From positions 64,001 to 128,000 of IMG/VR virus record IMGVR_UViG_3300014208_000003: a stretch of DNA of 64,000 nucleotides; one strand, given 5' to 3'. Shown here piece by piece: positions 5-61,395 of the stretch. Both the position numbers and the translations under genes were made by a program. The notes under the pieces are model-generated. The model ran no database searches. It had not been told where the DNA came from and saw only the letters and a list, made by a program, of their open reading frames with translations. The DNA is from a virus. The first letter of the stretch is position 1. Every line of letters starts with the position of its first letter.

Positions 5-295
5 ATGGCATATAACGGAAGAGCAAAAGAACTATATGGGGAATTTGCTGTAGTGAATGATTGTGGTTTTATATTTAATTATGTTCCGGATAAAATTAAA
101 AATAAGACTTCGAAATATATTGGTGTAAGAAGATTCCGAAATAAAGATAAAAAAGAAATGGGATGGACTGCTTATTATAACTCAAAATATATCGGATACT
201 TTAAAACAGAAGATGATGCAAAACAAGCTAGAGATAAATATGTAGAAAATTATAACAAACCATCGCCTGAATATTATATTGGAAACGGTGTTTAA
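5..295 (+). CDS. AP2-domain protein, probably the C-terminal part of an HNH-AP2 endonuclease truncated at the window edge
   Basis: AMAYN..AKELYGEFA and TSKYIGV..W.AY....YIGYFKTEDDA AP2-like repeats. Confidence 0.7.
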   Translation: MAYNGRAKELYGEFAVVNDCGFIFNYVPDKIKNKTSKYIGVRRFRNKDKKEMGWTAYYNSKYIGYFKTEDDAKQARDKYVENYNKPSPEYYIGNGV

Positions 296-912
296 TAACT
301 ATTCCGAATCATCTTTAAAATAAATCTTCCGGATCATTATTAGAAATATTTCCGGAAGATGCTTTTCAAATAATCAATCTCTAATCATTCTATCAACACA
401 CTAATAGTAAACATATATTATGCGCAATGTAAATTCCTTATTCCGGAATATGGTATGGAAGGATTATCGGAAATGGGTTCGGAATACTTCTAGAATGATT
501 CCGGAAAATGGTATCTGAATACTTTCCGGAAGAACTTATCGGAAGAGGGATCCGGAATATTGCTTTATAGGGTATAGCGGTTTTTTATACAGGAGGCGGT
601 TTTGGGGTGTCTAAAGGGGGTGCTCAGATTCGGAATTCTTTCAAAACATTCTTGCGGAAATATTGGAGGAATGATTAGATGAATGTTCCGGAAATCTCAC
701 ATAAAATAATTCTAGAAGTATTCCGGAAGATATTTGTGTTTTTTATTCCGGAAGATTATATTGGTATGAATTTTTGGATTTAATTTTTCGGGAAGTTTTT
801 TGGCTATAGAACTTTTTGTGATTGGTATGAAAATTGCTATGATATTTAATTCCGGAAGAATGTTCAAGAAATAATTTTGATTTAGTATTGTGATATGTTA
901 TTTTAGCGTGGT

Positions 913-1179
913 ATGTATAAAATATTTATTACGAGTGAAGAGAATAGATATCCTGTTATAGTATTATTGCGTGATGGTTGTTTGATGACATGTTATGGTA
1001 CTAAGGTTGAAATATGGATAATACAATGGTCGGATAATTTGAGAAATGAATTACAACGAGTTTATAAAGAAGTTGATATAGAAGATGTTCCGGAGATTTA
1101 CAGGGAATTGGTTCGGAACAGATTATCAGATCCGTTTTTGGATATAGAGACTAGAAGGTTAAAAGTTAAAGATGAATAA
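913..1179 (+). CDS. Small protein, DPFxEID-motif family
   Basis: C-terminal DVPE...LSDPFLDIE; part of an overlapping gene array. Confidence 0.8.
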   Translation: MYKIFITSEENRYPVIVLLRDGCLMTCYGTKVEIWIIQWSDNLRNELQRVYKEVDIEDVPEIYRELVRNRLSDPFLDIETRRLKVKDE

Positions 1180-1450
1180 ATTTAATATTGAGAATGTTAT
1201 ATGTTTCAGGGCGGGTAATGTATATGCGTGTTTTGTTGGGAAGATAATGTGTAAATATAATCTGAAAAAATATATAGCGGTTGAAATGTACAGAAAAATG
1301 ATTGGGATAGATTGGTTTTATAGGATGCAAAAAAATTCGGATGAGAGTATTACCATTCAAGAAGTTCCAGAGAATCTTCAGGAATATATTTTATCACCAT
1401 TTTTTGAGATAGATGTTCTGAGGCAATATCCGGAAATTATTTGGTTATGA
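1172..1450 (+). CDS. Small protein, DPFxEID-motif family
   Basis: EVPE...SPFFEID...YPEIIWL. Confidence 0.8.
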   Translation: MNKFNIENVICFRAGNVYACFVGKIMCKYNLKKYIAVEMYRKMIGIDWFYRMQKNSDESITIQEVPENLQEYILSPFFEIDVLRQYPEIIWL

Positions 1451-1713
1451 GATATTTTACATGGTATAATCATAAAGATCTTGTAGGATATTTGTGTTAT
1501 GCTTATGATGATAGGAAAATCTATTTACGTGCTAGTGATGAGACAGAGGATATTGAATTTACTAGTTATTATATTCCGGAGTGGGTGAAACAAGGTAAAT
1601 TAATAGAAGTTTCTGGTGATATTGTTCCGGAAGTTCTTAAGGAGAGATTTCGGAATAGGTTTGCTGATCCTTTTTTAGAGATTGATTATGAAAGGTTCCT
1701 GAATAGTTTATGA
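1441..1713 (+). CDS. Small protein, DPFxEID-motif family
   Basis: IVPE...ADPFLEID. Confidence 0.8.
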   Translation: MVMRYFTWYNHKDLVGYLCYAYDDRKIYLRASDETEDIEFTSYYIPEWVKQGKLIEVSGDIVPEVLKERFRNRFADPFLEIDYERFLNSL

Positions 1714-1997
1714 GGATATATTTAACAGAACATCCGAATTATTTTACTGTGTTTATTATTTTATTGGAGAAGGGTGATTATTTTGTTTATGTTGGATTTA
1801 AGGAAGATGAATCTGAATCCGGAAAGATTAAATGTGAAGAACTGTTTAAATCAACGACAGAAAGTTTGAAGAGAAAATATCGAGAAATTGGTGTAGATGA
1901 GATTCCGGGAGATTGGAGGGAAATTGTTCAAGGCTTTCTTTCGGATCCTTTTTTAGAGATAGATGTTCGGAGGCTATTGGAAAAGAAATTTGGATGA
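1710..1997 (+). CDS. Small protein, DPFxEID-motif family
   Basis: EIPG...SDPFLEID. Confidence 0.8.
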   Translation: MRIYLTEHPNYFTVFIILLEKGDYFVYVGFKEDESESGKIKCEELFKSTTESLKRKYREIGVDEIPGDWREIVQGFLSDPFLEIDVRRLLEKKFG

Positions 1998-2099
1998 CTT
2001 CGGGAATTGATTGGGATAGGGTTAATAGGCATGTGGGTTGAAGGAATATGTTCAGGAGTGTTTCGGGATAGGTTATCAAATATAAGAAATTTGGGATAG

Positions 2100-2390
2100 G
2101 TGTTTATGGATATTGAAAAGTTTAAGTGTTATCAGCAATCGGTTGGTTTTTATAATATTGTTTTGGGAGAGCAATCGAAATATAGGGTTAAGAAAATTGC
2201 TATTACATTTATTAAAAAATCGGAGAGGTGTAATTCTGATATTTTAATAGATAGTTGGCATTTCGAAGATTCTATTTCTGGCACCGTTATTAAGTTTGAG
2301 GAATTGCCCGATGAGTTATTGAGATATATTCGCGATCCGTTCTTTGAGATAGAAGTAGCGAGAAAGTTTCCGGAGATTGTTTGGTTATGA
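2100..2390 (+). CDS. Small protein, DPFxEID-motif family
   Basis: ELPD...RDPFFEIE...FPEIVWL. Confidence 0.8.
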   Translation: MFMDIEKFKCYQQSVGFYNIVLGEQSKYRVKKIAITFIKKSERCNSDILIDSWHFEDSISGTVIKFEELPDELLRYIRDPFFEIEVARKFPEIVWL

Positions 2391-2680
2391 AAATAGTAAA
2401 AGATAATATTGGTGTTGGTGATGTGTATAAAATGTGGTTGTTCCGGAGTGGTTCAAAAATTATTTATTATAGGTTTAATTTGAATTGGACAGGAATATCA
2501 TATTATTTATGGACAGGTGGTATTATTTATGAACACGATGTAACTTATAATTGTAATGTTGTTCCGGAGAATTTGAGGAAATTGTGTTTGAATATTCTTT
2601 CGGATCCTTTTTTAGAAATTGATTTGAGAAGGAAATATCATAAGTTGTTATCTGGTAATGATGTAGAGTGGTTTATATGA
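2381..2680 (+). CDS. Small protein, DPFxEID-motif family
   Basis: VVPE...SDPFLEID. Confidence 0.8.
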   Translation: MVMKIVKDNIGVGDVYKMWLFRSGSKIIYYRFNLNWTGISYYLWTGGIIYEHDVTYNCNVVPENLRKLCLNILSDPFLEIDLRRKYHKLLSGNDVEWFI

Positions 2681-2934
2681 AATATTTAAAATCTATTAAA
2701 GACTGTAACATGGATTATATTGTTGCTATATCTTTGAGTGAAAAACGTTATTCTAAAAGATATTATTTTGTTTTCTTTTGGGACGATAATGAATTTGGTG
2801 ATTTTCATGAAGGTATAAATTTAGATGATTACAAAGAGATTGATTATAATGCGCTTCCGGAAGATTGCAGAAAGTTTATAGAGTCACCGTTTTTTGATAT
2901 TGATGTTGAAAAGGCACGTGGGAAATTATTATGA
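2668..2934 (+). CDS. Small protein, DPFxEID-motif family
   Basis: ALPE...SPFFDID. Confidence 0.8.
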   Translation: MVYMKYLKSIKDCNMDYIVAISLSEKRYSKRYYFVFFWDDNEFGDFHEGINLDDYKEIDYNALPEDCRKFIESPFFDIDVEKARGKLL

Positions 2935-3245
2935 GGATCTTCCGGAATGAGGAGATATATTCATTGGTTTTAATTTGGAACGATAGAATTCCCGGTGTGG
3001 ATATAAAAACATTGGAAATTATAAGATGGGGTTCTGGGCATTTTGAATTAATGGACGATAGATGGGACTTGGATAGAGAAATTGGTTTAAAAGATATTCC
3101 GGAAGATGTTCGAAAAGAGTTTAGAGAATTTCTTTCGGATCCTTTTTTGGAGATAGATATTCTTAGAAATGATGAATATATAATTAATGGTGTTGATAAG
3201 GCATTGTTTTTTAAGAATTTGCAGGAATATAGAGAAAAGTTATGA
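2931..3245 (+). CDS. Small protein, DPFxEID-motif family
   Basis: DIPE...SDPFLEID. Confidence 0.8.
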   Translation: MRIFRNEEIYSLVLIWNDRIPGVDIKTLEIIRWGSGHFELMDDRWDLDREIGLKDIPEDVRKEFREFLSDPFLEIDILRNDEYIINGVDKALFFKNLQEYREKL

Positions 3246-3525
3246 TTGGGAAATATTATAATTTGGGTAATGATTGTTGTTATTTAGCACGACTTGTTGA
3301 AATAGGTAGTTCTTCTAAAGTTGGATTGTATGTAAGTATTTCTGGAAATTGGATATCTATTTACAAAGAAGATAGTATTCGTTGGTTTATGGTAGAAATG
3401 TTTTCGATGGATGGTATGCTACTAAAGATGTTCCAAAAGATATTCAAGAAGCATTCCGGAAGAAGCTTGATGATCCGTTCTTTGAGATAGATTTTGAAAG
3501 ATGGAAGAGATCAAAAGGACTGTAG
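3242..3525 (+). pseudogene. Frameshifted DPFxEID-family gene
   Basis: The ORF track frame ends at 3490, but the -1 frame from about 3376 reads ..KDVPKDIQEAFRKKLDDPFFEIDFERWKRSKGL* (TAG 3523-3525). Confidence 0.7.
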
Positions 3526-3762
3526 AAATTTTTGATAATCTAATTCCAGAAAAGGATCACGGAATTTTTCTTCAAAGGCTTTTCTGAAATGTTCCGGAAC
3601 ATCTTTTGCTAATACTTTTTTAACAATGTGAGGTGTGTTAGAAATTACGGGCATAGATAATGTAACATGTATTTTCTCACGACCAAAAATATCACGACGA
3701 CCTTTAACCAATATTCCTTTTTTCTGAACGTAATAATAAAGATCAGATTTAAAATATTTCAT
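3511..3762 (-). CDS. Small protein, DPFxEID-motif family
   Basis: KDVPE...RDPFLELD. Confidence 0.8.
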   Translation of the reverse strand: MKYFKSDLYYYVQKKGILVKGRRDIFGREKIHVTLSMPVISNTPHIVKKVLAKDVPEHFRKAFEEKFRDPFLELDYQKFLQSF

Positions 3763-6902: not shown

Positions 6903-7274
6903 TTACTTTGTTGCCGAGTATGCTTCAATTACTTTTTCTATTGTAAAAAATTCTGGGTTGATGAATGCTAGAATTGTTGGTTCTACGTTGAAAATAATAC
7001 ACAACAAAGATATCAATACAATCAAACCACTCACCAATAATCCAACTATATAAAAAACATTATCTTCTTTTTCTTTTTCAAGGAAATTATAAAATATTCC
7101 GAATATAACTCCGAATATAGCAAAAAGACATGTACTATAAACCATTGCCAGATATTGTTTAGCTACAGAATATTTTATAAACTGTTCACTAATATTTTGC
7201 ATATGAGGAACCATTCTAGAAACAATACCTTCCATTTTTGAGAAAGCCAGATTTACAGAATTCGTGTCTAACAT
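6903..7274 (-). CDS. Membrane protein
   Basis: Two hydrophobic segments; GGAG ribosome-binding site. Confidence 0.7.
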   Translation of the reverse strand: MLDTNSVNLAFSKMEGIVSRMVPHMQNISEQFIKYSVAKQYLAMVYSTCLFAIFGVIFGIFYNFLEKEKEDNVFYIVGLLVSGLIVLISLLCIIFNVEPTILAFINPEFFTIEKVIEAYSATK

Positions 7275-7354
7275 TTTTGAAACTCCTTTTTGAATAATTA
7301 TTTTGAATCTTGTTCCGGAACATCATTAAGAAATCTTCCGGAACTATTTTTTTT

Positions 7355-8413: not shown

Positions 8414-8731
8414 ATGAATTTAAGACAACTTTATTTTACGTTTAGTTTGGATAATCACTTAAATCTTTTATTAACAATCACTTATGAGAATGGTTCGGAA
8501 CTTACTGTTATACCTATTCAAAACATTTCTTACAAAACAAAATATATTCAAGAACACTTATTAGATTTTTACAACAGACTTAAATCATATTCGGAATCTA
8601 TTGGAATATTACTACTAGACAGAAATATCAAAGATCCTACCACAGAACTAATTTATAGGTGGTTTATCGAAGGAAGTTTAGAAAGCATTGTTTTGAATAC
8701 TAATGAAGAAGAATTCCGGAAGATGCTTTAA
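8414..8731 (+). CDS. Hypothetical protein
   Basis: Isolated plus-strand ORF. Confidence 0.5.
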   Translation: MNLRQLYFTFSLDNHLNLLLTITYENGSELTVIPIQNISYKTKYIQEHLLDFYNRLKSYSESIGILLLDRNIKDPTTELIYRWFIEGSLESIVLNTNEEEFRKML

Positions 8732-8997
8732 CATTTTCTGCTGCCTTTACGATTTATTTCCGTCAACGCATTATTGGCAGCAATTAGAGACACGGCTTCA
8801 TCCGAAAGTTTATTACATACATCAATAAAAAAACCTACATTCATATCGCACACTGGGTTGCACTCTTCGGAGTAGTCAAAACACAGTAATGTATGACCAT
8901 CAACATCACCAAGAGCCACTGGATATGATAACCCTAAATCAATCGACCGTTTCTGTATCAATGCTTTTATTACTATTTCAACATTGGATTTTCTCAT
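8728..8997 (-). CDS. Cassette gene 3, hypothetical protein
   Basis: MRKSNVEIV start lies inside the inverted-repeat-bounded unit. Confidence 0.65.
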   Translation of the reverse strand: MRKSNVEIVIKALIQKRSIDLGLSYPVALGDVDGHTLLCFDYSEECNPVCDMNVGFFIDVCNKLSDEAVSLIAANNALTEINRKGSRKC

Positions 8998-9052
8998 CTT
9001 CAGCCTTTCCCGAAAGTTTACTTGTGTTCTGTCTTGCACAAAATGTTATTGC

Positions 9053-9161
9053 ATCTAACGTTTAGGTTTGGTGAAGTGCCAAACCACTATAATCAATTAT
9101 TCGTTTGGCATTTGGGTCGCAGCTGGCTTGTCCAGCGGAGCCACCAAACCGTTTGTTGTGC
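9053..9161 (-). repeat. attC-like site 1
   Basis: Minus strand: GCACAAC AAAC GGTTTGGTG...CACCAAACC TAAAC GTTAGAT with two internal hairpins. Confidence 0.75.
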
Positions 9162-9183
9162 GATGTAAACCATGCCACTGCCT

Positions 9184-9435
9184 TTATTTGAATCTGATTG
9201 TTGCATCTTTGAAAACTAATCCCTCTGTAACGGTTCCCTCAATTCGAGTTCCATTAGGAGATGTTGCTATAAAACCTGTTTTGTAAACATCATCTTTCCC
9301 GCCCGCAAGAAAATCATAGCCAGTGAATTGAATGTCCTTATATCCATTTGCTTCAAGAATCCTTCTTGCACTATCCTCATTAGTGCAATTAGCAAAAAGT
9401 AACATTCCGATAACAACGATAATTGTCTTTAACAT
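9184..9435 (-). CDS. Cassette gene 2, putative small lipoprotein
   Basis: Signal peptide ending LLFANC; GGAG ribosome-binding site. Confidence 0.75.
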   Translation of the reverse strand: MLKTIIVVIGMLLFANCTNEDSARRILEANGYKDIQFTGYDFLAGGKDDVYKTGFIATSPNGTRIEGTVTEGLVFKDATIRFK

Positions 9436-9495
9436 CTTTACTCCTTTTCAGCGGGTTTACCCGCGTTAATTATGCCTTGTGGCATGGTTTATTTC

Positions 9496-22619: not shown

Positions 22620-22910
22620 TTAAATTTCCATACCGTGTGATTCTTGTTCCCGAAATCTTTTTAAATCTATCTCAAAGAATGGTTCCGCAATTTTATCGTT
22701 AACAATTTTTCTAATATCTTCCGGAACATTCCTACAAATTAAATTATAATCTCTAAATCCTTTTATTAGTTTCATTTCTCCATTATATTTTTCATATCTT
22801 ATAAAACAAGATACAATCGAATGAATTTTACTTTTACATTCGCCAACATATCTATAAAACGTTCCACCTAAATCGGCTTCGTCAATAAATTCCCAATATT
22901 CTTCAACCAT
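22620..22910 (-). CDS. Small protein, DPFxEID-motif family (dispersed copy)
   Basis: NVPEDIRK...AEPFFEID. Confidence 0.75.
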   Translation of the reverse strand: MVEEYWEFIDEADLGGTFYRYVGECKSKIHSIVSCFIRYEKYNGEMKLIKGFRDYNLICRNVPEDIRKIVNDKIAEPFFEIDLKRFREQESHGMEI

Positions 22911-44878: not shown

Positions 44879-45507
44879 TAGATTATCTCGTCAACTAGTC
44901 CATATTCCAAGCATGTTTTTGAATCGAACATTATATCATGCTTTAGAAGTTCGTTTAATTTTGCTTTAGGAATTTTTGTGTGTTCCAGATATATTTCTTT
45001 AATCAGTTTCATTTCATCGTGAACATTACTCATACCATCTTTTAATTCTTCATATTTTCCCCATACACCTCCAGATAATTGGTGTATAAGAATTCTGGAA
45101 TGTTTGTGCATGAGTCTTCTGGAGCATACGCAAGATATAAGTGATCCAGCAGAAGCAGCCACGCCATCGACAATAGAAACAACATCTACTTTTTTCTTTA
45201 GGTTTATAATATGATCTACACAAGCAAGTCCAGCATATAATTCGCCACCGTTAGAATTGATATGTAGAAAAACTTTATCCTGAACACCTTCTACGATAAT
45301 TGCTTGTGTAATGACTTGATTAGATATACCATGAAGAGTTTTATTTAATTTTAGAACAGAGTCTCTAGTAATTTCGGAATAAAAATAAACTCTATTATCG
45401 ACCACTTCTAGATAGGTTGGTTCGAGAAAAGATAAATCTGGAGTTATATCGGGAGTTGGTTCGCATCTGTTAAAACTAAATTTCTTACTTCCAAAATTAC
45501 TATGCAT
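44878..45507 (-). CDS. clpP: Second ClpP-like protease
   Basis: HINSNGG, AASAG, IHQLS, YGLVD. Confidence 0.85.
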   Translation of the reverse strand: MHSNFGSKKFSFNRCEPTPDITPDLSFLEPTYLEVVDNRVYFYSEITRDSVLKLNKTLHGISNQVITQAIIVEGVQDKVFLHINSNGGELYAGLACVDHIINLKKKVDVVSIVDGVAASAGSLISCVCSRRLMHKHSRILIHQLSGGVWGKYEELKDGMSNVHDEMKLIKEIYLEHTKIPKAKLNELLKHDIMFDSKTCLEYGLVDEII

Positions 45508-46366
45508 TTAGAACCTCTGTTGTTAAGTGTTTGATTGATTCAGTGTAAAGAGCAAAATCATCCTTAATCTTTTTTAGGCTATTGGTAACACAAAATTCTA
45601 AAAATTTCATATAACCAAAGGACTCTAAACGGATGCTATCGAATGTATTTAACACCGATTTTTTAACATCTTCCGGAATCTCTTCAAACGATATTAACAA
45701 TCTATTTCTTTTAATATTTTCTTTTACTTCGTCTGGTTGTTTATCATCGTACAAAATACCTTCATTAAAATATTTTGTAGCTTTTACTGGCCCTGTTTTT
45801 GGAAGAATTGCTGGAATATTATCACCGGAATCTCCCATTATAATTTTTACATCTAGATCTGTTAGGGGATTAAGACTTTCAAGATAATCGGCAGCGCAAG
45901 GACTGAATATTTTTACACCTTCAAATTTTAGTAGTTGTATAAAATCCTTATCAGAAGAAACTATTGTAATATCTCCCAAATCTCTTTCTTTAGTTAGGAT
46001 CGCAACAATATCATCACACTCAGAATCTTTAACTCTCATCCAATAAAAATTTGGGAATACTTTCTTTAACTCTTCTACAAAACCATCATTCACTTTATAG
46101 AACTGTTCATAATCGATTAGAGAGGCTTTACGTGCGTCTAAACGTTGTGCCTTATATTCCGGATATACTTTCTTTCTCCATGACTTTGAATCGATTGCTA
46201 TGACCACTCTATCAGGTTTAAATTTCAAAACATAATCCAGAATAGTTTTTGTCATTAAATGCTTCCAACCACCATAATTATCATCTATCAACATATTTTT
46301 ATAAGCAATATATAAATTACGATACATTATATTATGCCAGTCAATCATTATTGTTTTTTTTCTCAT
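45500..46366 (-). CDS. rnh: T4 RNase H-like 5'-3' exonuclease
   Basis: WRK..YPEYKA.R, ECDD, SSDKDF.QL, GDSGDNIP. Confidence 0.9.
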   Translation of the reverse strand: MRKKTIMIDWHNIMYRNLYIAYKNMLIDDNYGGWKHLMTKTILDYVLKFKPDRVVIAIDSKSWRKKVYPEYKAQRLDARKASLIDYEQFYKVNDGFVEELKKVFPNFYWMRVKDSECDDIVAILTKERDLGDITIVSSDKDFIQLLKFEGVKIFSPCAADYLESLNPLTDLDVKIIMGDSGDNIPAILPKTGPVKATKYFNEGILYDDKQPDEVKENIKRNRLLISFEEIPEDVKKSVLNTFDSIRLESFGYMKFLEFCVTNSLKKIKDDFALYTESIKHLTTEVLNA

Positions 46367-46686
46367 TAGTTTTCCTTAAATGTGTTGTGGATGGTGGTTA
46401 TATATTTTAAACAATCTATTTCTAAGAACGGATCCGAAAGCATGTTCAGAACAACTTTTTCAACACTGTCCGGAACTTGGTTTATTGCTCTCTGTTTGTT
46501 ATCTAAATTGTGATCCCATGCTAATTCTGGTTCCGAACATTCTCCCATATTAGTTTCTACTCTTATCGCAATTACATATTCTCTATCTTCTATTTTTATT
46601 AGATTGTCAAAATAGTAGTAATAAATGATCCAATCATCCTCTATCCTGTCCATATTTATAGCGTACCAGAAACCTTCTAACGCCAT
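46366..46686 (-). CDS. Small protein, DPFxEID-motif family (dispersed copy)
   Basis: QVPDSV...LSDPFLEID. Confidence 0.75.
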   Translation of the reverse strand: MALEGFWYAINMDRIEDDWIIYYYYFDNLIKIEDREYVIAIRVETNMGECSEPELAWDHNLDNKQRAINQVPDSVEKVVLNMLSDPFLEIDCLKYITTIHNTFKEN

Positions 46687-46807: not shown

Positions 46808-47611
46808 TCATTGTCTCTCCATGAATTCTTTGTTTCTGAATGAAATATTTGGAATCATATTTAACTTATGTTTTTCAATTCTATCTATCGCTATCTTCCA
46901 GTATTTCTCTTCTTTTTCAATTCCAATGAAATTTCTTTTGGTAGATAAACACGCTATTGCGGTTGTTCCGGAACCTATGCAATTATCTAAAACAGTATCA
47001 CCTTCATTCGTATATGTTTTAATCAAATATTCAAATAACGCAACTGGCTTTTGAGTAGGATGTACAGCGTTTTTATCATTAGGAAAGTAAATTAAATCTA
47101 TAGGATAATTTTCAAACTCTTGTATATATGCTTTATGTGAAGGTCTTGGTGCTTTAAAAGAATGTTCGTTTGTTGTACTATAATCACAACCACTTCTTTT
47201 CTTAGTACATGGAGTTAAACCTTGTGGATTATATAACATTCTTCTTTCTGATTTGTTAGCTGTTGTACCATTAGAAAAAACTAAAATATCTTCATGCTTT
47301 TTCATTGGTTTATTTTTCACATTCATACAATCACCAGCGTTTGATTTTTCCCAACACCAAGCATATTTCAGCATTTCTATATTTGATGCTCCTAAAGCTG
47401 TTGTAAAAGGTTGACTTGCTGTTAAAACTATAGCACGATTATCTTTTATTATTCTTTTATATTGTTCCCAAAGAGGTTTAAAAGGAATTACTGTGTCCCA
47501 TTTACAAGCAGTAGTTCCATAAGGCAAATCACAAAGTATCATATCCACACTTTTATCTGGAATGTACATCATCGCCTCGAGACAATCACCTAAAATTATT
47601 TCATTTAGCAT
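46808..47611 (-). CDS. Beta-class N4/N6 DNA methyltransferase
   Basis: DLPYG, HPTQKP, DNCIGSGTT. Confidence 0.92.
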   Translation of the reverse strand: MLNEIILGDCLEAMMYIPDKSVDMILCDLPYGTTACKWDTVIPFKPLWEQYKRIIKDNRAIVLTASQPFTTALGASNIEMLKYAWCWEKSNAGDCMNVKNKPMKKHEDILVFSNGTTANKSERRMLYNPQGLTPCTKKRSGCDYSTTNEHSFKAPRPSHKAYIQEFENYPIDLIYFPNDKNAVHPTQKPVALFEYLIKTYTNEGDTVLDNCIGSGTTAIACLSTKRNFIGIEKEEKYWKIAIDRIEKHKLNMIPNISFRNKEFMERQ

Positions 47612-47632: not shown

Positions 47633-48264
47633 GTTAAAACATTCTCCGGACTTTTTTTGGAAACTTTCTGGAATACTTGTTGTTGTTTAGGATTTAATGT
47701 ACTCAGATCAATTATATTATTTCTTAGCTTCAATTCTGTTTGTAATAATTTTGCTATCCACCATGCATCTATTATATCACTTTTAGGAGAATCAAAATCA
47801 TTCAACCAGTTCAAATCAATCTGTTCATCTTTATTCGGATACATATTATAAGCACTTTGCATGGCCACTTTATTAGAATTGCCTTTTAACGTCGAAAATA
47901 ATTTTATCGTTGTCGGCTCGTACACTCTCATTTTAATACCCATCATGTAAACAGAAAGCTTGACATTTCCGCAATATTCCGCTATGTCAAAAACAAGACC
48001 TTTAGATGAACCAAAAGAATATCCTTCGACTGCCGCATAATCCGATCCAAAAACAAATTCGGAATATTCTCCTTGCATAAATTCAAACTGGTCATAATTA
48101 TTGTTAAAATCCTTCTTCCGGAAATAATGTATATGATCATTCGTTAATTTTTTTACAGTATTAAATCCGAGATAATCTACTTTTGTTATTTCTAATTTAT
48201 CATCAAGAACAAACTTTACAAAACCGGGGCTGTTGATACTTAAATCCAAACCACATATAATCAT
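47605..48264 (-). CDS. RuvC-like Holliday junction resolvase
   Basis: GLDLS, VEGYSF, P..IK...KGNSNK, D..DA. Confidence 0.8.
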   Translation of the reverse strand: MIICGLDLSINSPGFVKFVLDDKLEITKVDYLGFNTVKKLTNDHIHYFRKKDFNNNYDQFEFMQGEYSEFVFGSDYAAVEGYSFGSSKGLVFDIAEYCGNVKLSVYMMGIKMRVYEPTTIKLFSTLKGNSNKVAMQSAYNMYPNKDEQIDLNWLNDFDSPKSDIIDAWWIAKLLQTELKLRNNIIDLSTLNPKQQQVFQKVSKKSPENVLTKEFMERVC

Positions 48265-49238
48265 TTTCTTTCCTTAAACTGAATTGATGGGATCTTGTTC
48301 TGTTTATATTTAAGGATTCTATTTTCTGCTATTTGTATATATTCCGGATTTAATTCACAACCAACATAATTCCGATTATTTTTAAGAGCAACGATAGCAG
48401 TAGTTCCGGAACCCATGAAAGGATCTAATATCAAACCATTTTCCGGACATCCTGCTTTAATAGGTGTTTCAATCAATTCTTCCGGAAATACTGCGAAATG
48501 AGCTTCTGTAAAAGGTTTTGTAGGAATATCCCAAACACATCTTTTATTTTTCGTGGTATAATTATTATGAACAAGACCACCCATTTTAGTTCTACCGGGT
48601 GTGTTATTTAATCTTGTATCGTCTCTATTCCGAAAAGTGTTATCTGTACTGGTTGCTTCTTCTTTTACCGAATCCTGATCAAAATAATACTTCTTAGATT
48701 TTACCAGAAAGAAAATTTCCTCAAAGTCAACCGTGAATCTGTCTTGAACACTCTGAGGCATTGCATTTCTTTTATACCAGATTATTTTGTTTCTTAAAAT
48801 CCACCCTCTATTAGTCATTTCAATAGCAAATCTAGAAGGAATTTGTAATAGGCATTTATCAGAAGAATAACTATCACCCAAATTTACAAAGCATGTTCCT
48901 TCTGATTTCAATACTCTCTTTACCTCTTCAAACAAATCACACAACTTATTCACATATTCTTCCGGAGTATTTTCAAGACCTATTTGTTGATCTATTCTTT
49001 TTGCACCACATTTTTTACATATACCAGTAAATACACCATAAGTAACACGTCCAAAACAATTCTTACCACCTTTATTATCTCTCATATGATTACAGTCACT
49101 ATTTCCACCTTCCCAATTCGCTGTTTTATAATCTCGGAGTCCGTAATAGGGAGGACTAGTAACACAGCAATCAATAGAGTCATCCGGAAGTGTTTTCAAA
49201 ATGTCTAAGTTATTGCCTTGGAATATTTTGTTCGTCAT
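48261..49238 (-). CDS. Beta-class DNA methyltransferase, probably N4-cytosine
   Basis: TSPPY, HFAVFP, DPFMGSGTT. Confidence 0.92.
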   Translation of the reverse strand: MTNKIFQGNNLDILKTLPDDSIDCCVTSPPYYGLRDYKTANWEGGNSDCNHMRDNKGGKNCFGRVTYGVFTGICKKCGAKRIDQQIGLENTPEEYVNKLCDLFEEVKRVLKSEGTCFVNLGDSYSSDKCLLQIPSRFAIEMTNRGWILRNKIIWYKRNAMPQSVQDRFTVDFEEIFFLVKSKKYYFDQDSVKEEATSTDNTFRNRDDTRLNNTPGRTKMGGLVHNNYTTKNKRCVWDIPTKPFTEAHFAVFPEELIETPIKAGCPENGLILDPFMGSGTTAIVALKNNRNYVGCELNPEYIQIAENRILKYKQNKIPSIQFKERK

Positions 49239-50239
49239 ATTAAAACCTTATCATAAAGACTATTGGTGAAATATGTTCTCAATTCGCGAAACGAGAATGA
49301 AAACTTGTTCAAAGCCAAACACACATCGTTCATATCCCATTTCTTCCGTTCACCTAATCCGTTATCTTTCAAAAATTTATTCCATAAGAAAACATATTTA
49401 CCATGATTTAACATTTTCTTACTGGCTATTCTTCCTGCTTCATCTCCGTCCAATAAGTAATAGCATTTTAACGGTTCTAATTTTTGTTTAACACTATTCG
49501 TAAAAGCTGTTCCTAAAACTGCTACGGAATTTTCTATCATCAAAGAATCGATAATGCCTTCTGTTACAATTACCGGATTTTTAATATCAATAAAATCTAT
49601 GTTATATATTGCTTTATCCCTATCCAATAACCGATTTAAATATTTCGGTTCCTGTTCTTTTAATGCTCTTGCCTGATAATAATAGATCTTGTTCTTTGAA
49701 TCATAAAACGGAATCACTAATCTATCCTTATAACTACCATCAACGGCTATAAACCATTTCTTCCAAACATTTTCCGGAATATGCCTTTCAATACAATATT
49801 TTATAGCATTATCGAAAAGATCTCCGGAACCTTTTAGAATATTAACAAAATGAATTACTTGTTCCTGTTCATATTCTAATTTCTGTATTCTTTGGATAGC
49901 TTCTTCTTTTTCTAATTCCTGTTTTAAATTCCTCTCATACTCTTTCAAATTAACAGGATTTTCTAAAATACATTCTCTAAGATAGGACTGATATTCTGAG
50001 AAAAAATATTCCTTTAACCATTTTTCAACAGGGATCGAAACATTACAATTATGACAGATATATGTTGGATGCTTATTAAAAAGAAAATATCCTCTACGTT
50101 TAAAAGAATTTGTCTTGGAATCACCACAAACGTTACACCTGATATTTATATATTCTGATGTTATTTTTGACTTTCTAAAATTATTCCGGACAACCTGTAA
50201 TATGTATTTTTTTAAAAGAGAAGTTTTGAATAAGTTCAT
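49235..50239 (-). CDS. DNA primase, gp61-like
   Basis: C..CGDS zinc finger, RLVIPF, TEG.IDS, D.D. Confidence 0.9.
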   Translation of the reverse strand: MNLFKTSLLKKYILQVVRNNFRKSKITSEYINIRCNVCGDSKTNSFKRRGYFLFNKHPTYICHNCNVSIPVEKWLKEYFFSEYQSYLRECILENPVNLKEYERNLKQELEKEEAIQRIQKLEYEQEQVIHFVNILKGSGDLFDNAIKYCIERHIPENVWKKWFIAVDGSYKDRLVIPFYDSKNKIYYYQARALKEQEPKYLNRLLDRDKAIYNIDFIDIKNPVIVTEGIIDSLMIENSVAVLGTAFTNSVKQKLEPLKCYYLLDGDEAGRIASKKMLNHGKYVFLWNKFLKDNGLGERKKWDMNDVCLALNKFSFSFRELRTYFTNSLYDKVLI

Positions 50240-50757
50240 CTTGGTTTTAAAATAGATGTTAAAGATGGAGTTGGATCGTTGTTTATATATGCGTCTAATT
50301 GTTCCGAAGTTATTTTTAAGACATCCGTTCTACCATCAAAAACCACTATCATAGAATCGTGCATTGGTGCCGACCCTTCACCTACCATTACACCATAAGT
50401 ATTGATTCCCTTGAAAGAAACCCTGCCTTCAATAAAACACATAGATGTATAATTTGGTTTTATAACTTCATGGAATAATTTTGTTGATGTGCTAACGGGG
50501 ATGAGAAAAACACATAATTTATTCTTACAACTTTCTTCAACACCTTTCTTAACAAAATTATCTTTAGACGGTGTGGAATATGGAGGATTAATAAAATTTC
50601 TTGTTTTCCAATCTATATGTATACCATTCCACGCTGAAAGATCATGATTTATCGGACAAGGATCAAATTGAAAATCAAACAATGTATTAAGTTTATTATA
50701 AAGATATTTCGGTGTTTTCCAATTATCCTTATGTTCTATATTTCTGTTTTTCATCAA
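50236..50757 (-). CDS. Phage Dam-like N6-adenine methyltransferase
   Basis: DNWKTP, FDPCP, FINPPYS, GR.SF. Confidence 0.85.
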   Translation of the reverse strand: MMKNRNIEHKDNWKTPKYLYNKLNTLFDFQFDPCPINHDLSAWNGIHIDWKTRNFINPPYSTPSKDNFVKKGVEESCKNKLCVFLIPVSTSTKLFHEVIKPNYTSMCFIEGRVSFKGINTYGVMVGEGSAPMHDSMIVVFDGRTDVLKITSEQLDAYINNDPTPSLTSILKPR

Positions 50758-55648: not shown

Positions 55649-56278
55649 CTATATGTTCGCGGTGTAAATTCTTTTTAGTTCTGACTTATTTTCCGACAAT
55701 ACTTTTTTAACATCTTTTACTACTGTTTTCAGATCCTTTGACAGATAATCACAACAACCAAGAACCCATTTCGGAAGTTCAGTATAATCATCTATATCAC
55801 AAACTAATAGAACCGGTATATCAAACATTTTCGCAACTGTTAATTCAGCAGGAGTGCCATAAGTAGCAACACCTTTTATCCAATAACATAACACAACATC
55901 ACTTTTAATCAATGCCGAAAGATCTGTCTGAATAATATTATATGCCCATTTCTTTACTTCAGAATATTTCAACTCATGTCGGGAACACTTATCGAATAAT
56001 TGCAGTTCACCATTCAGTTTATTTTTCTCAGCGGGATTGAAAGAGTCTATATTGTGTTTCTGCAATTTCTTCTCGACTATTTTTCTCCAATCCGCACCGT
56101 AATCTGTCAAGTATTCCATTGCGCCGCATAAATAGCAATTTTTATTTTTTATTTCTATCCGATTTAAAGTTCTGATTGTTTTGGTAAAAGACATTAATCG
56201 ATTTATTCCGGATGATTCGTGATCCTTATAATTATTTTCTAATTTAATCACATTTTTCTCCTTTAATGTTTTTTTCAA
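55649..56278 (-). CDS. Nucleoside 2-deoxyribosyltransferase-like protein
   Basis: YLCGAM...DWR, FNP, DL..L..SD, GT..E. Confidence 0.75.
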   Translation of the reverse strand: MKKTLKEKNVIKLENNYKDHESSGINRLMSFTKTIRTLNRIEIKNKNCYLCGAMEYLTDYGADWRKIVEKKLQKHNIDSFNPAEKNKLNGELQLFDKCSRHELKYSEVKKWAYNIIQTDLSALIKSDVVLCYWIKGVATYGTPAELTVAKMFDIPVLLVCDIDDYTELPKWVLGCCDYLSKDLKTVVKDVKKVLSENKSELKRIYTANI

Positions 56279-56462
56279 TTTTATTTAATAATTGTTTTAT
56301 AATCAATATATTTTCTAAATTTGAATCGATGTATTCTACCATAATAGTTTTAGTATTTTTATTTTGATAAGAATTTAATATCTTTCCTTTTTTGAACCAA
56401 TTGAAAGCAGTTTTGTAACACACATTTTTAATTTTAGCATATTCTGATAATTTTATTATCAT
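56244..56462 (-). CDS. MerR-type HTH resembling the IS607 resolvase N-terminus
   Basis: KLSEYAK..NVCYKTAFNWFKKGKI. Confidence 0.65.
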   Translation of the reverse strand: MIIKLSEYAKIKNVCYKTAFNWFKKGKILNSYQNKNTKTIMVEYIDSNLENILIIKQLLNKIEKNIKGEKCD

Positions 56463-57175
56463 ATATTTTTTCCTAATATAGTTTGGATACTATTTATTTT
56501 ATTATAATGTATTCTTATTAATTTTATACCTTTTTGTTTACAATATTTTGTTTTTATTTTATCGTGCTTTTGTGTTATTAAAACATTTTTCATACCGTCT
56601 TCATTTTTGTGTTTAAAATAAGGATAATAATGTTGTTTTCCGTCAAACTCTATACATATATTTTTATCGGGTAAATAAAAATCAAATGGTAAAGGATTTT
56701 TATTCTTGCAATCTTCAAATCTATAATTATGATTATATCTTATATTGTTTTTTTCTAACCACGTTAATATTGAACGTTCTCCTCTGGATATTCTACACAA
56801 TTTACAACCAGTACCTAATAATAATCGTTTAGGGTTAACTAAAATTTCACCGTGTTTTTTACAGATTATGATTATTTTGGTTTTATTGTTGATATAATTA
56901 ACTTTTGAATAATCATACTCCTCTCCGTATATTTCTTTAACTTGCTTTATGAATATATTTAATGGTTTTGGTTGAAGAATTTTAGATTTCATCCATATAC
57001 ATTTTCTACAATCATGGTGTTGTAAATGATTTTTATAATTACATTCAAATTCACCGTGAACAGGACAAATCACAATTATTTTATTTTTTACTCTGTTTTC
57101 CATGTTTGTTTTCGAATAATCAAATTTACCGTTCCAAATTTTTGATGCCTTTTCTATAAATTCTTTTGTAGTCAT
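56459..57175 (-). CDS. Homing endonuclease, paralog of 39804-40808
   Basis: DYSK..ICPVHGEF repeats; PLPFDFYLP, IEFDGKQH, LIRI.Y. Confidence 0.85.
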   Translation of the reverse strand: MTTKEFIEKASKIWNGKFDYSKTNMENRVKNKIIVICPVHGEFECNYKNHLQHHDCRKCIWMKSKILQPKPLNIFIKQVKEIYGEEYDYSKVNYINNKTKIIIICKKHGEILVNPKRLLLGTGCKLCRISRGERSILTWLEKNNIRYNHNYRFEDCKNKNPLPFDFYLPDKNICIEFDGKQHYYPYFKHKNEDGMKNVLITQKHDKIKTKYCKQKGIKLIRIHYNKINSIQTILGKNI

Positions 57176-57193
57176 ATAAATCTCCTTTAGAAG

Positions 57194-57201
57194 TATTTAT
57201 A
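57194..57201 (-). promoter_or_regulatory. Late promoter TATAAATA
   Basis: Exact T4 late consensus before the AAGGAG ribosome-binding site of the endonuclease. Confidence 0.65.
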
Positions 57202-57237
57202 TATCTAACAAAGAATTTATACATATTTTTCTATATT

Positions 57238-57780
57238 TTATTTTCTAAAGTAATCATTATAAGCCTTCTGTTGTGATGTTGATAATTCTTCTTTATAAAA
57301 CTTCCGAGAATTATCTTTAGCCCATTCGTATTCATCCATAAACCAGTTACGGAAAACATTCTTAGAGAACCGATTCATGGCTACTTGTCTGGCATTATGT
57401 TCATAAGATTCTTTTAACCACATATCTTTTTTCGTTTCGTTTTCTGTCATTATTTCGTTTTCTACTTTAATGACATCTATATACAGTTTTTTCTCTGCTT
57501 CTTCTTTAGTGCGGTCAAACCAATCATATTCTTTCTCGATCAATTCTTTAGAAACCTTATGAATAATCGCAACTAATGTTCTCGGGATCTTTACTTCTTC
57601 ATAACCATAACCATAATAAACATCAATAGTGGGTGGTTCATAATTGTAACAATATTTTTTGGTCGCCATTTTAGAAACTTTACAGCATTTTTTAACACCA
57701 GAAATAATTATATCTCCATCTTTCAAAACCACTTTAGAACCAACATACGCCTCTTTGTTTTGCAATGTAACAGCTACCAT
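57238..57780 (-). CDS. Hypothetical protein
   Basis: ORF with GGAG ribosome-binding site. Confidence 0.6.
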   Translation of the reverse strand: MVAVTLQNKEAYVGSKVVLKDGDIIISGVKKCCKVSKMATKKYCYNYEPPTIDVYYGYGYEEVKIPRTLVAIIHKVSKELIEKEYDWFDRTKEEAEKKLYIDVIKVENEIMTENETKKDMWLKESYEHNARQVAMNRFSKNVFRNWFMDEYEWAKDNSRKFYKEELSTSQQKAYNDYFRK

Positions 57781-57788
57781 TTTAACTC

Positions 57789-58073
57789 CTACTGTTCAAG
57801 AATTCCTATATCACCATTTTCAAGCATTTTTTTGTCTTCATATGGCGCAACAACACTTCTATTAAACTCTGCTAGAACGTCTGTAAGCACTCCTGTTACA
57901 TCAGAAAGATTGGAATAGGTAATGCCCTTCTTTTTAATATATAGATGAACCAAGCGCGTTATAGAGTAGTTTAAAGCCCCTCTGTTCAGATCAGTTCCGT
58001 CCCAAAGTGCATAAAAAAGATTATCAACATGTGTATCTATCTTTTTTCGTTCAAACTGTTTTATATATGGCAT
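57789..58073 (-). CDS. Conserved phage protein of the MPYI...G.LNY type
   Basis: MPYIK, GALNY.IT, EF.R..V.PYED.K..ENGD. Confidence 0.7.
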   Translation of the reverse strand: MPYIKQFERKKIDTHVDNLFYALWDGTDLNRGALNYSITRLVHLYIKKKGITYSNLSDVTGVLTDVLAEFNRSVVAPYEDKKMLENGDIGILEQ

Positions 58074-59133
58074 TTATTCATTCTCCAAAATTTTCATATC
58101 TTCTACTTTTTCAAAATCCATCTTTAACAGATCCAATGCTTCTTTCTCATGGATTCCGAATGATTTCTGTAATTCGTTTAGTGTGCTTCTCTTAATAGTT
58201 GTTTTAGTGACTTCCATATCATTCCTTAATTGTTTGAACCACTATTTCAGAAGTTTTTCCAGACCAAGGATCAACAAAGAATATTTTAGTAAGTCCGAGA
58301 ACATTATTAACTTCTACGTCTGTTACTATGTCGTTTTTGTGCGGGAGGTTATCGAGTCTGTTCAAAGCCATTTTAGACCACCTTTCTTTAAATTACTTCG
58401 ACACCATTATTCGTACACCATTTTTCATAACTTTTATCCATATCTCTTTTCAGGTCGTTAATAATATAAGCACAATTTTTAAAATCGGCGTGAGATAAAA
58501 CTATTTGATCTGCCCAAGGATTTCCGGTTCTAATTATTTTCCATATCCATCTTAATCTTTCTTTAAAACTAAGTGGTCGAACATCATTACCTAGCTTCCA
58601 CATGCTTACATAAACTAATGGTGAAATAGGTTCGGAATCATCTAAACAAAACTCAATTGCTTCTTGACCATCTGTACATTTTAAGAATCGCGATTTCATA
58701 TTATTTGCTCCATGATTTATTATCGTTAAACCATCGATTAGTTTGTATTATTGTATCTCCTTCATTTCCCCATAATCCATCTAATTTAACAAAGGTATTT
58801 TCCGGAATCTTTTTAACATACGTAGCTGCTTTAATTTCATTCCAACCAGCAGACGGTAACTGTGTTCTAATAATTACAGCAATACATTTTTGATTCATTC
58901 TATTATGGTATTCTTGATTAGCTTTCTCATTAGCAGAAAAATCACAAGAACAAAAAATCCCAAGACTAACAATACACATTAAAACTTTTGCTTTCATAAT
59001 TTCTCCATTGTATCCAGAATAAATGCAATTGTAAGACTAACAGATATGACAAATTCAAAACCAAATTCCCAAAAAGGTGCCAGCAGCATACTTAAAATTA
59101 TTGAATATCCAATGATTCTTAATAAAGCTCTAA

Positions 59134-61395
59134 TCATTTTTCCTTCTTTCTTAAAAATGTTGATAATGTTGGTTTTACTAGATTTATAACACCCCAGCCC
59201 ATTACATCATAAAATCTTTGAATCTTATCCTGAAATGTTTTGTTCCATTGTATTTCAAAATCTATCTTGAAATTATTTTTGATATATTCCGGACAGTTCC
59301 CAATAAATCCAATGACATCTTGTTTCAGAATATTGTTTGTAGTACAGTAATAATATCTAATCTTACTTCCGGAATCTACTTGCTGATTAGGTATGTTAAA
59401 ATGTTTTATTATAGCATTGTAATTGATACCTGCTCTTGAAGCCATTGGTGTATGAGGTTTGAAACAATTACCTTCAAGAATTGTTTTCATTATATTTTGG
59501 GATTGAATATCGTACTTACCAAAATCAGATATACCTTTAGGAGAAGCAATTTTTTCAATGGACTGTTTACAAAATTCTGCTTTAAGTTTAGTTAGATATT
59601 CGGTGACTTTAATCCGATCCTTACTTTCCATAATCAATTCAATCATAGACAATAATTTTTCTCTGCACCATGAAGGAGTATCGGATCTTACAACTTCTAT
59701 TCCGGTAATTGCTAGTTTAGGTTTATCGTATATTTTATGTTCTTTTGCAAGCATTCTAATAGCATATTTTTTCTTGGCTTGTATGAACATCGCATCGGCT
59801 ATTTTATCACGTTGGAATTTAATACGATTTTCAATATTATACTTAGCACAAAATATATCCAGCATCTTCTTGAATAATGGTTCCAAAACTGTTTTATCCA
59901 AGTCTAAAGCAAAATCTAAAAATGAACGTTTATCCTCTAATGTCTCTTGAAGTTCCTTTACAGAATAATAATTGCTGTCCGTATCGATAAGTTGACATGG
60001 TGCGAGTTTCAAAGGTTGCTTCCCGAACTTTTTTGGATAATGGTTCTGAAGATAATCATTAGTATTGTTCGCAAGATATTTTATAATAGTCTGCCCGAAA
60101 CCCGTAATAACTCTGGCATGGTTTATATTATAGAAGTTAAAATAGGGACTTGACATGATGCCATACAAACTATTTATTGCGATCTTTCGGATATACTGCA
60201 TACGATCATAATATTCTTCTCCTACCTTATCTCCTTTTAAACCACACTCTTTCTGCAATTTTTTAAAACGAATTCTATCATTAAAAATATTCTCAGTAAC
60301 TTCCGCAATAATTCCCTTTTTAGATTTATCATAATACACACCAGCGATAGGAGTTTTTATTAACATTCCTTTTGCTTCTAACTCTGCTCTTCTCTCACAC
60401 TCATCTTGCATAACAATAGTAGTAGCACACATATTCGTTGCCATAATAATTGACGGATAAAGGCTCTGAACATCATAACTAATAATATTCTCATAAAAGC
60501 CTTGATTCGCCATAACATAAGCACCATCAAATTGTTCTTTATGAAAATCTCCTTTATCAGACACTACCATATTTTTATTGTGCAATGCCTTCATAACATA
60601 ACCAGTCAAAACCGCTACAGAAGAAAAGATAGATTCAAACGGACATAATGATTCGTAACACATTGTAATAGCTAATCCGATATATTTCATCTTAGCATCT
60701 AGTTTAATTATTAGATTTACGTCCTGAATATTATACTCTACAAACTTATTCCAATCAGTTTTCCAAATAGTGTTTATCGTACCATCAAATTCTAACTTAC
60801 CCTCATTAATTTCATGCATACAAACAGAATTCAAATTATATGACTCTAGTTTCTCTTGCTGGAATTTTTTATAAAGATCCATATAATCTAAACAGGCAAT
60901 TCCACCTATCTTATTTTCCCATACTTTAGTCATCTTCCCTTTAGAATCATATTTTTCTTTTTGTTCTGTTTTCCATTTGTGTATAGGCGACATCGTTCCT
61001 TCAACACCTAATTTCTGGCATCGATTTATTAAGTAAGGTATATCAAATTGTGAAGAAAACCATCCCGAAAGAACTTGTATATTAGACTTCCGGAACCATC
61101 TACAAAACTTCTCTAACATTTCCTTTTCATCGGGATTGTAATAATAGTTTTTTGTAATAGTAGTATCATCAAGAGGGTATAGACCAAATGTATAGAACTC
61201 ACTTGTTTTTGATAAGTAAACCGTTATTAGATTGATAGGGAAATTAGCATCTTCTGGCTTGGGAAAAACGGGTGCAACATAATAACAACTATCTTTAAAT
61301 AAACACCATTTATTAGATTTTTCATCCCATATTTCATAATCATTAGAATTATATCGTTGTTCAAACTCTTTTATGGATATGTATGTTTCCGACAT
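59134..61395 (-). CDS. Family B DNA polymerase, large C-terminal fragment
   Basis: FDIPY (ExoII), YNIQD (ExoIII), DVQSLYPS, K..INSLYG, DTDS, KKKYA. Confidence 0.93.
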   Translation of the reverse strand: MSETYISIKEFEQRYNSNDYEIWDEKSNKWCLFKDSCYYVAPVFPKPEDANFPINLITVYLSKTSEFYTFGLYPLDDTTITKNYYYNPDEKEMLEKFCRWFRKSNIQVLSGWFSSQFDIPYLINRCQKLGVEGTMSPIHKWKTEQKEKYDSKGKMTKVWENKIGGIACLDYMDLYKKFQQEKLESYNLNSVCMHEINEGKLEFDGTINTIWKTDWNKFVEYNIQDVNLIIKLDAKMKYIGLAITMCYESLCPFESIFSSVAVLTGYVMKALHNKNMVVSDKGDFHKEQFDGAYVMANQGFYENIISYDVQSLYPSIIMATNMCATTIVMQDECERRAELEAKGMLIKTPIAGVYYDKSKKGIIAEVTENIFNDRIRFKKLQKECGLKGDKVGEEYYDRMQYIRKIAINSLYGIMSSPYFNFYNINHARVITGFGQTIIKYLANNTNDYLQNHYPKKFGKQPLKLAPCQLIDTDSNYYSVKELQETLEDKRSFLDFALDLDKTVLEPLFKKMLDIFCAKYNIENRIKFQRDKIADAMFIQAKKKYAIRMLAKEHKIYDKPKLAITGIEVVRSDTPSWCREKLLSMIELIMESKDRIKVTEYLTKLKAEFCKQSIEKIASPKGISDFGKYDIQSQNIMKTILEGNCFKPHTPMASRAGINYNAIIKHFNIPNQQVDSGSKIRYYYCTTNNILKQDVIGFIGNCPEYIKNNFKIDFEIQWNKTFQDKIQRFYDVMGWGVINLVKPTLSTFLRKKEK

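Follow-up and report, generated by a model that had tools for sequence, protein, structure and literature searches.

Highly iterated palindromes (HIPs) of cyanobacteria, HIP1 (GCGATCGC) and its alternates, are octamers built on a 6-bp restriction-type core, over-represented 15- to 300-fold and recurring about once per 0.5-1 kb (Elhai 2015, PMC4390886; Xu, Lawrence and Durand 2018, PMC5861425). Here we analyzed a phage counterpart, the palindromic hexamer TCCGGA and its octamer TTCCGGAA, in a stretch of 64,000 nucleotides (the window) that corresponds to bases 64001-128000 of the virus record IMGVR_UViG_3300014208_000003 (158,262 bp). The phage word displays most of the descriptive features of a HIP, namely an excess of at least 15-fold, presence in all frames and in spacers beyond codon usage, conservation beyond the neutral level and deviations at outer letters, and HIP1 is the closest known phenomenon. 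HIP1 and the phage word have in common their occurrence in all frames and spacers, sites conserved beyond neutral expectation, a candidate cognate methyltransferase and one-letter deviations located mainly at the outer letters. An initial annotation of the window had spoken of a HIP1-like genome mark, and the finding of a hyper-abundant octamer that pervades frames and spacers, is conserved in relatives and varies at its outer letters bears out this comparison. The word is a counterpart of the cyanobacterial palindromes in a small clade of T4-like phages and, judging from sequence, is probably read by a protein.

Magnitude and DNA-level nature of the excess

The window contains 119 copies of TCCGGA, compared with 7.30 +/- 2.39 (maximum 12) in 100 dinucleotide-preserving shuffles, in agreement with the roughly 110-120 copies, far above expectation, that had been tallied in the initial annotation. 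The copies span positions 84..61095, with 105 coding copies in all three frames and 14 non-coding ones, and 65 of them are extended to TTCCGGAA (0.95 expected). On the scale of the whole genome (31.7% G+C, with a 123-bp overlap of the record ends that is consistent with a circularly assembled genome), 301 copies face a zero-order expectation of 11.7, a 25.8-fold excess; the octamer is enriched about 117-fold, and 301 of the 435 CCGG sites carry the T...A flanks. TCCGGA is the sole enriched palindromic hexamer of the genome. Most other palindromes that contain G+C are strongly depleted, CCATGG and CTGCAG being absent and GGTACC found once (11.7 expected each). Phages normally purge short palindromes. 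That nearly all others have been purged, while a single one is kept at 100-fold despite its amino-acid cost, implies an important reader of the word.

Zero-order, dinucleotide and codon-aware nulls were used; maximal-order Markov expectations are uninformative and were dropped, because the 5-mers themselves already hold the excess. Coding sequences harbor 271 sites, as opposed to 68.2 +/- 6.5 when synonymous codons are shuffled within each gene and 30.6 when codon order is shuffled. Frame use is 149/88/33, with 31 sites not fully coding, and the word is present at 35% (271 of 773) of all positions where the encoded amino acids permit it. Occupancy depends on context, reaching 52% for x-Pro-Glu/Asp, 38% for Ser-Gly and 13% for [FLIV]-Arg-x. 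The earlier claim that the word occurs in all frames and in non-coding DNA, and is no codon effect, thus holds, and the ratio of observed to expected copies stays well away from 1 after codon-aware correction, a value that the initial annotation had set out as speaking against it.

A neutral origin of the word, as a by-product of codon usage, of a motif in peptide or RNA, or of a repeated paralog module, is very improbable. The unequal frames would be compatible with such an origin, as would a family of 29 small genes (76-106 amino acids; Table 1), which have unrelated N-termini and a common C-terminal module, [VIL]PE-x(6-12)-DPF[FL]EI[DE]. In 24 of the 29 members, the conserved V/I-P-E is encoded by TTCCGGAA, usually 15 residues before PF-EID, which places the word at the junction of the variable and constant parts. 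This family was nevertheless rejected as the source of the word, as it accounts for at most 31 of the 301 sites. Moreover, synonymous shuffles recover only a quarter of the sites, spacers are rich in the word, and the flank signal described below is symmetric on both strands regardless of gene orientation. We conclude that the excess is real and strong, and that it acts at the DNA level.

Conservation and arrangement of the sites

The genome harbors T4-like head and sheath genes, as well as a T4-type replication and recombination module comprising a family B polymerase, gp32, UvsX, a DnaB-like helicase, a primase, a RuvC-like resolvase and an SbcC-like protein. No close named relative was found in the phage collection, and scans of JGI metagenomes and IMG/VR with the helicase and the polymerase yielded distant relatives only. 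A 30.6-kb Logan contig (the relative), 27.2 kb of which were analyzed, is syntenic with window 44-71 kb and 51-87% identical at the protein level. It contains 87 TCCGGA sites (3.2/kb) with a 205-fold enrichment of TTCCGGAA; in a third clade member, with 84% identity of one conserved protein, 27 sites were counted over 8.6 kb, and site density in the two relatives is 3.1-3.2/kb. A syntenic T4-like contig of 168 kb with 44-49% identity served as outgroup and has no TCCGGA site in 30.8 kb, and among about 60 more distant T4-like loci no comparable excess was found. The samples concerned are SRR28981388, SRR6846456 and ERZ27284553 for the relatives and ERR7850082 for the outgroup. This distribution marks the word as a derived trait that is limited to a narrow clade. 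Counts in the whole genome and in relatives, which had been suggested as a check on the initial annotation, extend the excess beyond the window. Another palindrome, TGGCCA, lies 5-8x above composition expectation in several related freshwater T4-like metagenome loci.

Outside the word, 47% of 4-fold degenerate sites are identical between phage and relative. With the amino acids unchanged, identity holds for 16 of 17 motif hexamers, versus 42% of control hexamers (p=1e-5). Among 41 positions with a compatible context in both genomes, the word is found in both at 21, in only one at 10 and in neither at 10 (Fisher p=0.002), and sites present in one genome only often involve amino-acid replacements creating Ser-Gly. 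These comparisons count in favor of selection holding the word dense in the clade.

To characterize the surroundings of the word, occupied coding sites were compared with unoccupied positions of the same amino-acid context. At occupied sites, T is more frequent at positions 1 and 3 counted outward from the core (p=1e-33 and 1e-14), followed by A at positions 4-8, T at 10-13 (p=1e-10 at 12) and A at 16-18. The signal reaches approximately 18 bp on either side, is seen in all frame classes and persists when the paralog family is removed, and both relatives independently show the same profile. Given this symmetry, the context of each site extends over about 40 bp, with A/T phased at intervals of roughly 10 bp. 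Such phasing is typical of protein-bent or protein-wrapped DNA. The symmetric flank context far exceeds the need of a 6-bp enzyme site.

Sites also obey spacing rules. Genome-wide, no two sites lie less than 22 bp apart (8.4 pairs expected), and of 54 compatible coding pairs at 4-20 bp none is doubly occupied (6.0 expected, P=0.002). Pairs at 21-27 bp number 16 versus 3.8 expected, nine of them in spacers. The non-coding sites are concentrated in early-region spacers (28 of 31; genome 44.5-71.4 kb), where density reaches 6.5/kb compared with 0.44/kb in other spacers (p=4e-9). Early-spacer sites are arranged in runs of three to four with a spacing of 22-26 bp, including a run of four at exactly 22 bp whose fourth copy is one letter off (genome 62025-62091), and weaker palindromes, TTCAAGAA or TTCTAGAA, are positioned midway (~11 bp) between TTCCGGAA cores in arrays (genome 62025-62110; window 470-520). 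The early control region listed in Table 1 displays a run at 500/525/551 (25-26 bp apart), pairs at 328/351 and 722/747, and many one-off copies (TTCGGAA, ATCGGAA, TTCCGAA). Operators and iterons are likewise characterized by several palindrome copies that follow each other at a fixed distance of about two helical turns in promoters or origins, and by analogy the spacer arrays resemble tripartite phage operators or iterons.

Two further spacer elements were noted. The element TTC(C)GGAATACTTCTAGAAT is recurrent in two spacers, and a promoter-like box, TTGGA-N6-A(C/T)TTTC-N4-TATTATATTT, is found upstream of five genes (genome 27911, 54685, 56381, 72335, the latter being window 8335, and 146096). 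TCCGGA falls within the N6 spacer of two of the five boxes only, and the word was rejected as a part of this promoter.

A recombination or nuclease signal, either a palindromic Chi-like exonuclease attenuator or a nicking or initiation site for recombination-dependent replication whose higher density would pay directly, is improbable as an explanation. A density of about 2/kb is similar to that of uptake sequences or of Chi in Chi-rich phages, a palindrome would work from both ends of a linear or concatemeric genome, and the full T4-type set is encoded (UvsX, gp32, the SbcC-like protein and the RuvC-like resolvase next to the methyltransferase). However, Chi is recognized in single-stranded form and independently of any symmetric 40-bp context, the early-spacer arrays and the exclusion of close pairs would be left unexplained, and no site-specific nickase was identified.

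Methyltransferases and segments devoid of the word

The initial annotation had proposed that a phage methyltransferase maintains the mark. Motif rules suggest that the beta-class enzyme with an SPPY motif IV (Table 1) is of the N4-cytosine type, and PDB relatives of the methyltransferase are of mixed N6/N4 type. In phage and relative, the SPPY and Dam-family genes are located between gp32 and the RuvC-like gene; in the outgroup, the primase is directly followed by the RuvC-like gene and only an unrelated methyltransferase is found elsewhere. The outgroup avoids GATC (15 vs 97 expected, observed/expected 0.15) and CCGG (12 vs 26, 0.46), and Polaribacter phage P12002S has one CCGG vs 21.8 expected, 22 GATC vs 132 and no TCCGGA. 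Within the clade, GATC and CCGG are at parity outside the motif, which fits two enzymes protecting GATC and CCGG-type sites.

A methyl mark could itself be the signal, set on TCCGGA by the SPPY enzyme for a Dam/SeqA-like discrimination of strand or age, or methylation-dependent repair could create the sites; we regard this as unlikely. One-letter deviations from TTCCGGAA occur mostly at outer letters (observed/expected 13-47, versus 2-12 for inner positions), as reported for HIP1 (PMC4390886). TCCGGA is a classical type II site, and the SPPY gene is present in phage and relative where the motif-free outgroup has none. It also holds the most sites of any gene in both genomes (six in the phage, five of them common to the relative), although, with p=0.012 among 245 genes, this density loses significance on correction. 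The paired sites, separated by about two turns of the helix, are also reminiscent of SeqA, which needs two GATC sites. Several results speak against this explanation. TCCGGA is missing from contigs whose SPPY homologues are 48-57% identical; specificity therefore cannot be deduced from homology, and methyltransferase homologues were rejected as a predictor of the word. CCGG outside the motif is likewise not avoided, and the enzyme may therefore act on plain CCGG. Furthermore, a 6-bp enzyme site leaves the 18-bp symmetric flank signal and the exclusion of close pairs unexplained.

A repair-based variant fares no better. No mismatch-repair or Vsr gene was found, and the complete genome has no match to C5 methylases (PF00145) or Vsr (PF03852). 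Depletion is absent among all one-off variants, the transition variant TTCGGA/TCCGAA being the most enriched (4.5-fold) and TCTGGA/TCCAGA reaching 2.8-fold, and a Vsr-type drive was rejected on these grounds. No restriction endonuclease gene, as would be expected of a type II restriction-modification system for TCCGGA (BspEI/Kpn2I type), adjoins the SPPY methyltransferase, whose neighbours are the primase and the RuvC-like resolvase. In the relative, whose site density is higher, no DLPY gene occupies the corresponding locus. Given the homologue contigs without the word, the lack of C5 methylase and Vsr, the lack of depleted variants and the absence of the DLPY gene from the denser relative, protection by the methyltransferases does not account for the 100-fold excess. 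What stands of the proposal is a clade-specific SPPY gene at a place where the outgroup has none; the case for maintenance of the mark by a methyltransferase is circumstantial, and the homologue contigs and the missing DLPY gene weigh against it.

The word is unevenly distributed. Site-free stretches of the window comprise the cassette array and the ribonucleotide reductase segment of Table 1, positions 56213-58800 and everything beyond 61094. The segments singled out in the initial annotation, that is the cassette array, 38.7-43.4 kb and the endonucleases at 56.4 and 61.4 kb, are indeed empty, with no site in 8.4 kb (16 expected) and none of 15 compatible positions occupied, versus 271 of 758 elsewhere (p=0.002, post hoc). 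Comparison with the relative identified several empty segments as insertions specific to the phage genome, and four larger genome-specific genes contain no site in 3.4 kb (P=0.001), pointing to incoming DNA that starts without the word. The annotation had taken absence as a trait of foreign segments, but it is not specific to them: core late genes are nearly empty as well (major head 0/6, tail sheath 1/8, baseplate wedge 1/7; together 2/21 vs 35%, p=0.009), and so is the SbcC-like gene (0/6). The ribonucleotide reductase gene with its intein is occupied at one of 13 compatible positions. Occupancy is highest in the early region (0.44) and amounts to 0.29 in the structural region (p=0.004); correction for multiple testing leaves only weak differences in density between single genes.

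A word borrowed from the host would be compatible with part of this distribution. The host chromosome would be saturated with TTCCGGAA, and the same host reader or repair bias would act on phage DNA, an explanation that we hold to be rather unlikely. Newly acquired genes lack the word, as gradual amelioration would predict, and no phage-encoded reader emerged from searches for HU/IHF, HTH_3 and AP2 or from 10 of roughly 40 early open reading frames (ORFs). Two complete unrelated phage genomes with a ~7-fold TCCGGA excess (10-14-kb stretches) contain neither N6_N4 nor C5 methyltransferases. Concerning the host itself, a stretch of ~150 nt in one methyltransferase gene is 79-82% identical to Polaribacter and Flavobacterium phages, which hints weakly at a Bacteroidota host. 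Yet the Polaribacter phage lacks TCCGGA and has purged CCGG; the trait is thus not general among phages of marine Flavobacteriaceae. A T4-like phage also replicates by its own machinery. A TnpB-type (IS605 OrfB) gene, located between the tail sheath and later structural genes (genome 18400-19464), contains no TCCGGA but says little in this respect, because its best relatives are 58-60% identical and hence indicate no recent host transfer. A more specific version, in which phage and Bacteroidota host share the word, a host reader treats phage DNA as chromosome, the arrays steer early transcription or replication and the N4-cytosine methyltransferase shields the sites, appears slightly less likely still.

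Gene content differs at two loci. Window 40757-44056 encodes a class II-type reductase with a LAGLIDADG intein, whereas the relative carries an NrdD-family (anaerobic) gene (15290-17062), so the type of reductase has been exchanged at a conserved locus. A ClpP-family protease gene (window 44878-45507) is also found in the relative and not at the syntenic place of the outgroup.

Table 1. Positions of the features discussed in the text (window coordinates unless marked as genome)
Feature	Position	Strand	Remarks
Early control region	296..912		617 bp, non-coding; 10 TCCGGA, 8 of them as TTCCGGAA
Small-gene family, 29 members	913-3762, 22620-22910, 46366-46686; genome 58510-62980, 130263-143773		
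Site pair	7314..7342		23 bp apart; 39 and 62 nt upstream of minus-strand ORF 6903-7274
Small-gene cassette array	8721..10755		Motif-free; G+C 0.36
Ribonucleotide reductase segment	38636..43411		Motif-free; non-coding stretch, 334-aa zinc-finger ORF and most of the class II ribonucleotide reductase gene with LAGLIDADG intein
Second N6_N4 methyltransferase	46808..47611	-	267 aa; DLPY, adenine type by motif
Beta-class N6_N4 DNA methyltransferase	48261..49238	-	Motif IV SPPY; clade-specific at this position
Small Dam-family methyltransferase	50236..50757	-	NPPY; also in the relative; absent at this place in the outgroup
Three genes	56244..57780	-	Motif-free; no counterpart in the relative
292-aa ORF	61416..62294	-	Between DNA polymerase and neighbour; absent from the relative; 0/6 compatible positions occupied

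A putative reader and comparison with known systems

We tentatively favor the explanation that TTCCGGAA is a selectively kept recognition word, read by a symmetric DNA-binding protein with a long footprint, operator-like in the early region and protected by the SPPY methyltransferase. The octamer with its TCCGGA core would be recognized on double-stranded DNA and kept dense by selection in the clade. Its reader, encoded by phage or host, would be a symmetric, probably dimeric protein that contacts or bends ~30-40 bp. At the early intergenic arrays, whose sites follow at 22-26 bp with weaker TTCWWGAA palindromes halfway between them, this protein would control early transcription and possibly the start of replication. 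Elsewhere, single sites would be maintained in genes about every 0.5 kb through synonymous codons and some amino-acid changes, and DNA arriving from outside would start without them. The clade-specific SPPY enzyme probably methylates the CCGG-containing core, such that ~300 restriction-type sites are no liability; it would then accompany the word without having caused it. The absence of both the genes and the footprint of a repair drive is in favor of a selected recognition word, and the binding signal, which the initial annotation had offered as an alternative, gained most support through the symmetric phased flanks, the exclusion of close pairs and the operator-like arrays.

A number of observations weigh against this explanation. 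Pfam searches of the genome for HU/IHF, HTH_3 and AP2 had no match and no reader gene was found, nor was a DNA-binding domain detected in the 10 ORFs scanned of roughly 40 in the early region, where most small ORFs were assigned to no family. Coding pairs at 21-27 bp are not significantly enriched (7 vs 4.7), so cooperativity is supported in spacers only, and overall site spacing is clumped (coefficient of variation 1.3) and not even. Occupancy at conserved contexts is high in both genomes (56% and 71%), and the 21 sites in both genomes compare with 16.3 expected; part of the shared sites could thus reflect two genomes at the same equilibrium, and conservation alone cannot tell selection from a strong drive. 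The evidence is all derived from sequence. Finally, unrelated phage contigs display a TCCGGA excess beyond codon usage, though without flank pattern and pair exclusion, so a more general cause is possible.

These contigs emerged when viral contigs were screened for pairs of TTCCGGAA separated by 12-20 nt, a scan whose other matches were mostly chance pairs. In five unrelated IMG/VR phage contigs with 44-52% G+C, TCCGGA is the top hexamer. One of them, a siphovirus-type fragment, holds 50 sites, compared with 2.6 expected by composition and 16 after synonymous shuffling, and its portal resembles prophage portals of Streptococcus, Anaerostipes and Clostridium (Firmicutes). Neither the flank profile nor the pair exclusion was seen in these contigs, which indicates that the hexamer is favored in several phage lineages, perhaps for different reasons.

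An ORF of 238 amino acids encoding an HNH_3 endonuclease (genome 63579-64295, its 3' end in window 1-295) lies directly upstream of the largest TTCCGGAA array. Its two C-terminal repeats look AP2-like by eye, but Pfam AP2 gave no match.

The function of the cyanobacterial iterated palindromes has been open for about 30 years, and a 158-kb phage is a much smaller system in which to find a reader and to test what such a word does. Its early control regions bear dense arrays, its spacing rules are clear, a candidate methyltransferase is encoded, and foreign genes devoid of the motif can serve as internal controls. Should the same word occur in the host, the phage would exemplify a new kind of host mimicry, one of DNA words, and a word shared with the host would provide a testable function for iterated palindromes through a dependent virus. 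Searches of the literature, both for the word's occurrence in phages and for its over-representation, returned nothing relevant.

Elements of the phage system are found in several known ones. The operators OR1-3 and OL1-3 of lambda are tripartite operators of temperate phages. Like them, the phage arrays are runs of three or four palindromic sites, 22-26 bp from center to center, in divergent promoter regions; unlike them, the word is also present ~270 times inside genes, and no repressor gene was found. TF1 of phage SPO1 and similar phage-encoded DNA-bending proteins have preferred sites concentrated at early promoters and a long footprint. A concentration at early promoters is shared by the phage word, and the phased A/T tracts suggest bending, but the phage genome contains no HU-family gene, and TF1 sites are not an exact iterated palindrome. 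Chi, the uptake sequences DUS and USS, and Dam-GATC with SeqA are short words kept at high density since a DNA-handling machine reads them, and the phage word is similarly dense and written into genes by codon choice. Chi and uptake sequences, however, are oriented, non-palindromic and host-owned, whereas the phage word is palindromic, and GATC, a word of just 4 bp, shows no enrichment of two orders of magnitude. In very-short-patch repair, words such as CCWGG (with Dcm/Vsr in E. coli) are methyltransferase targets raised in frequency; the phage differs in having no C5 methylase, no Vsr and no depletion of T:G-derived variants. From HIP1, the closest of all, it differs in the word itself, in its setting in an A+T-rich genome of virulent type instead of a bacterial chromosome and in its restriction to a narrow clade. 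It further adds a symmetric, helically phased A/T context, a lack of neighbours within 22 bp and arrays in early spacers, none of which is mentioned in the consulted excerpts of the HIP1 sources.

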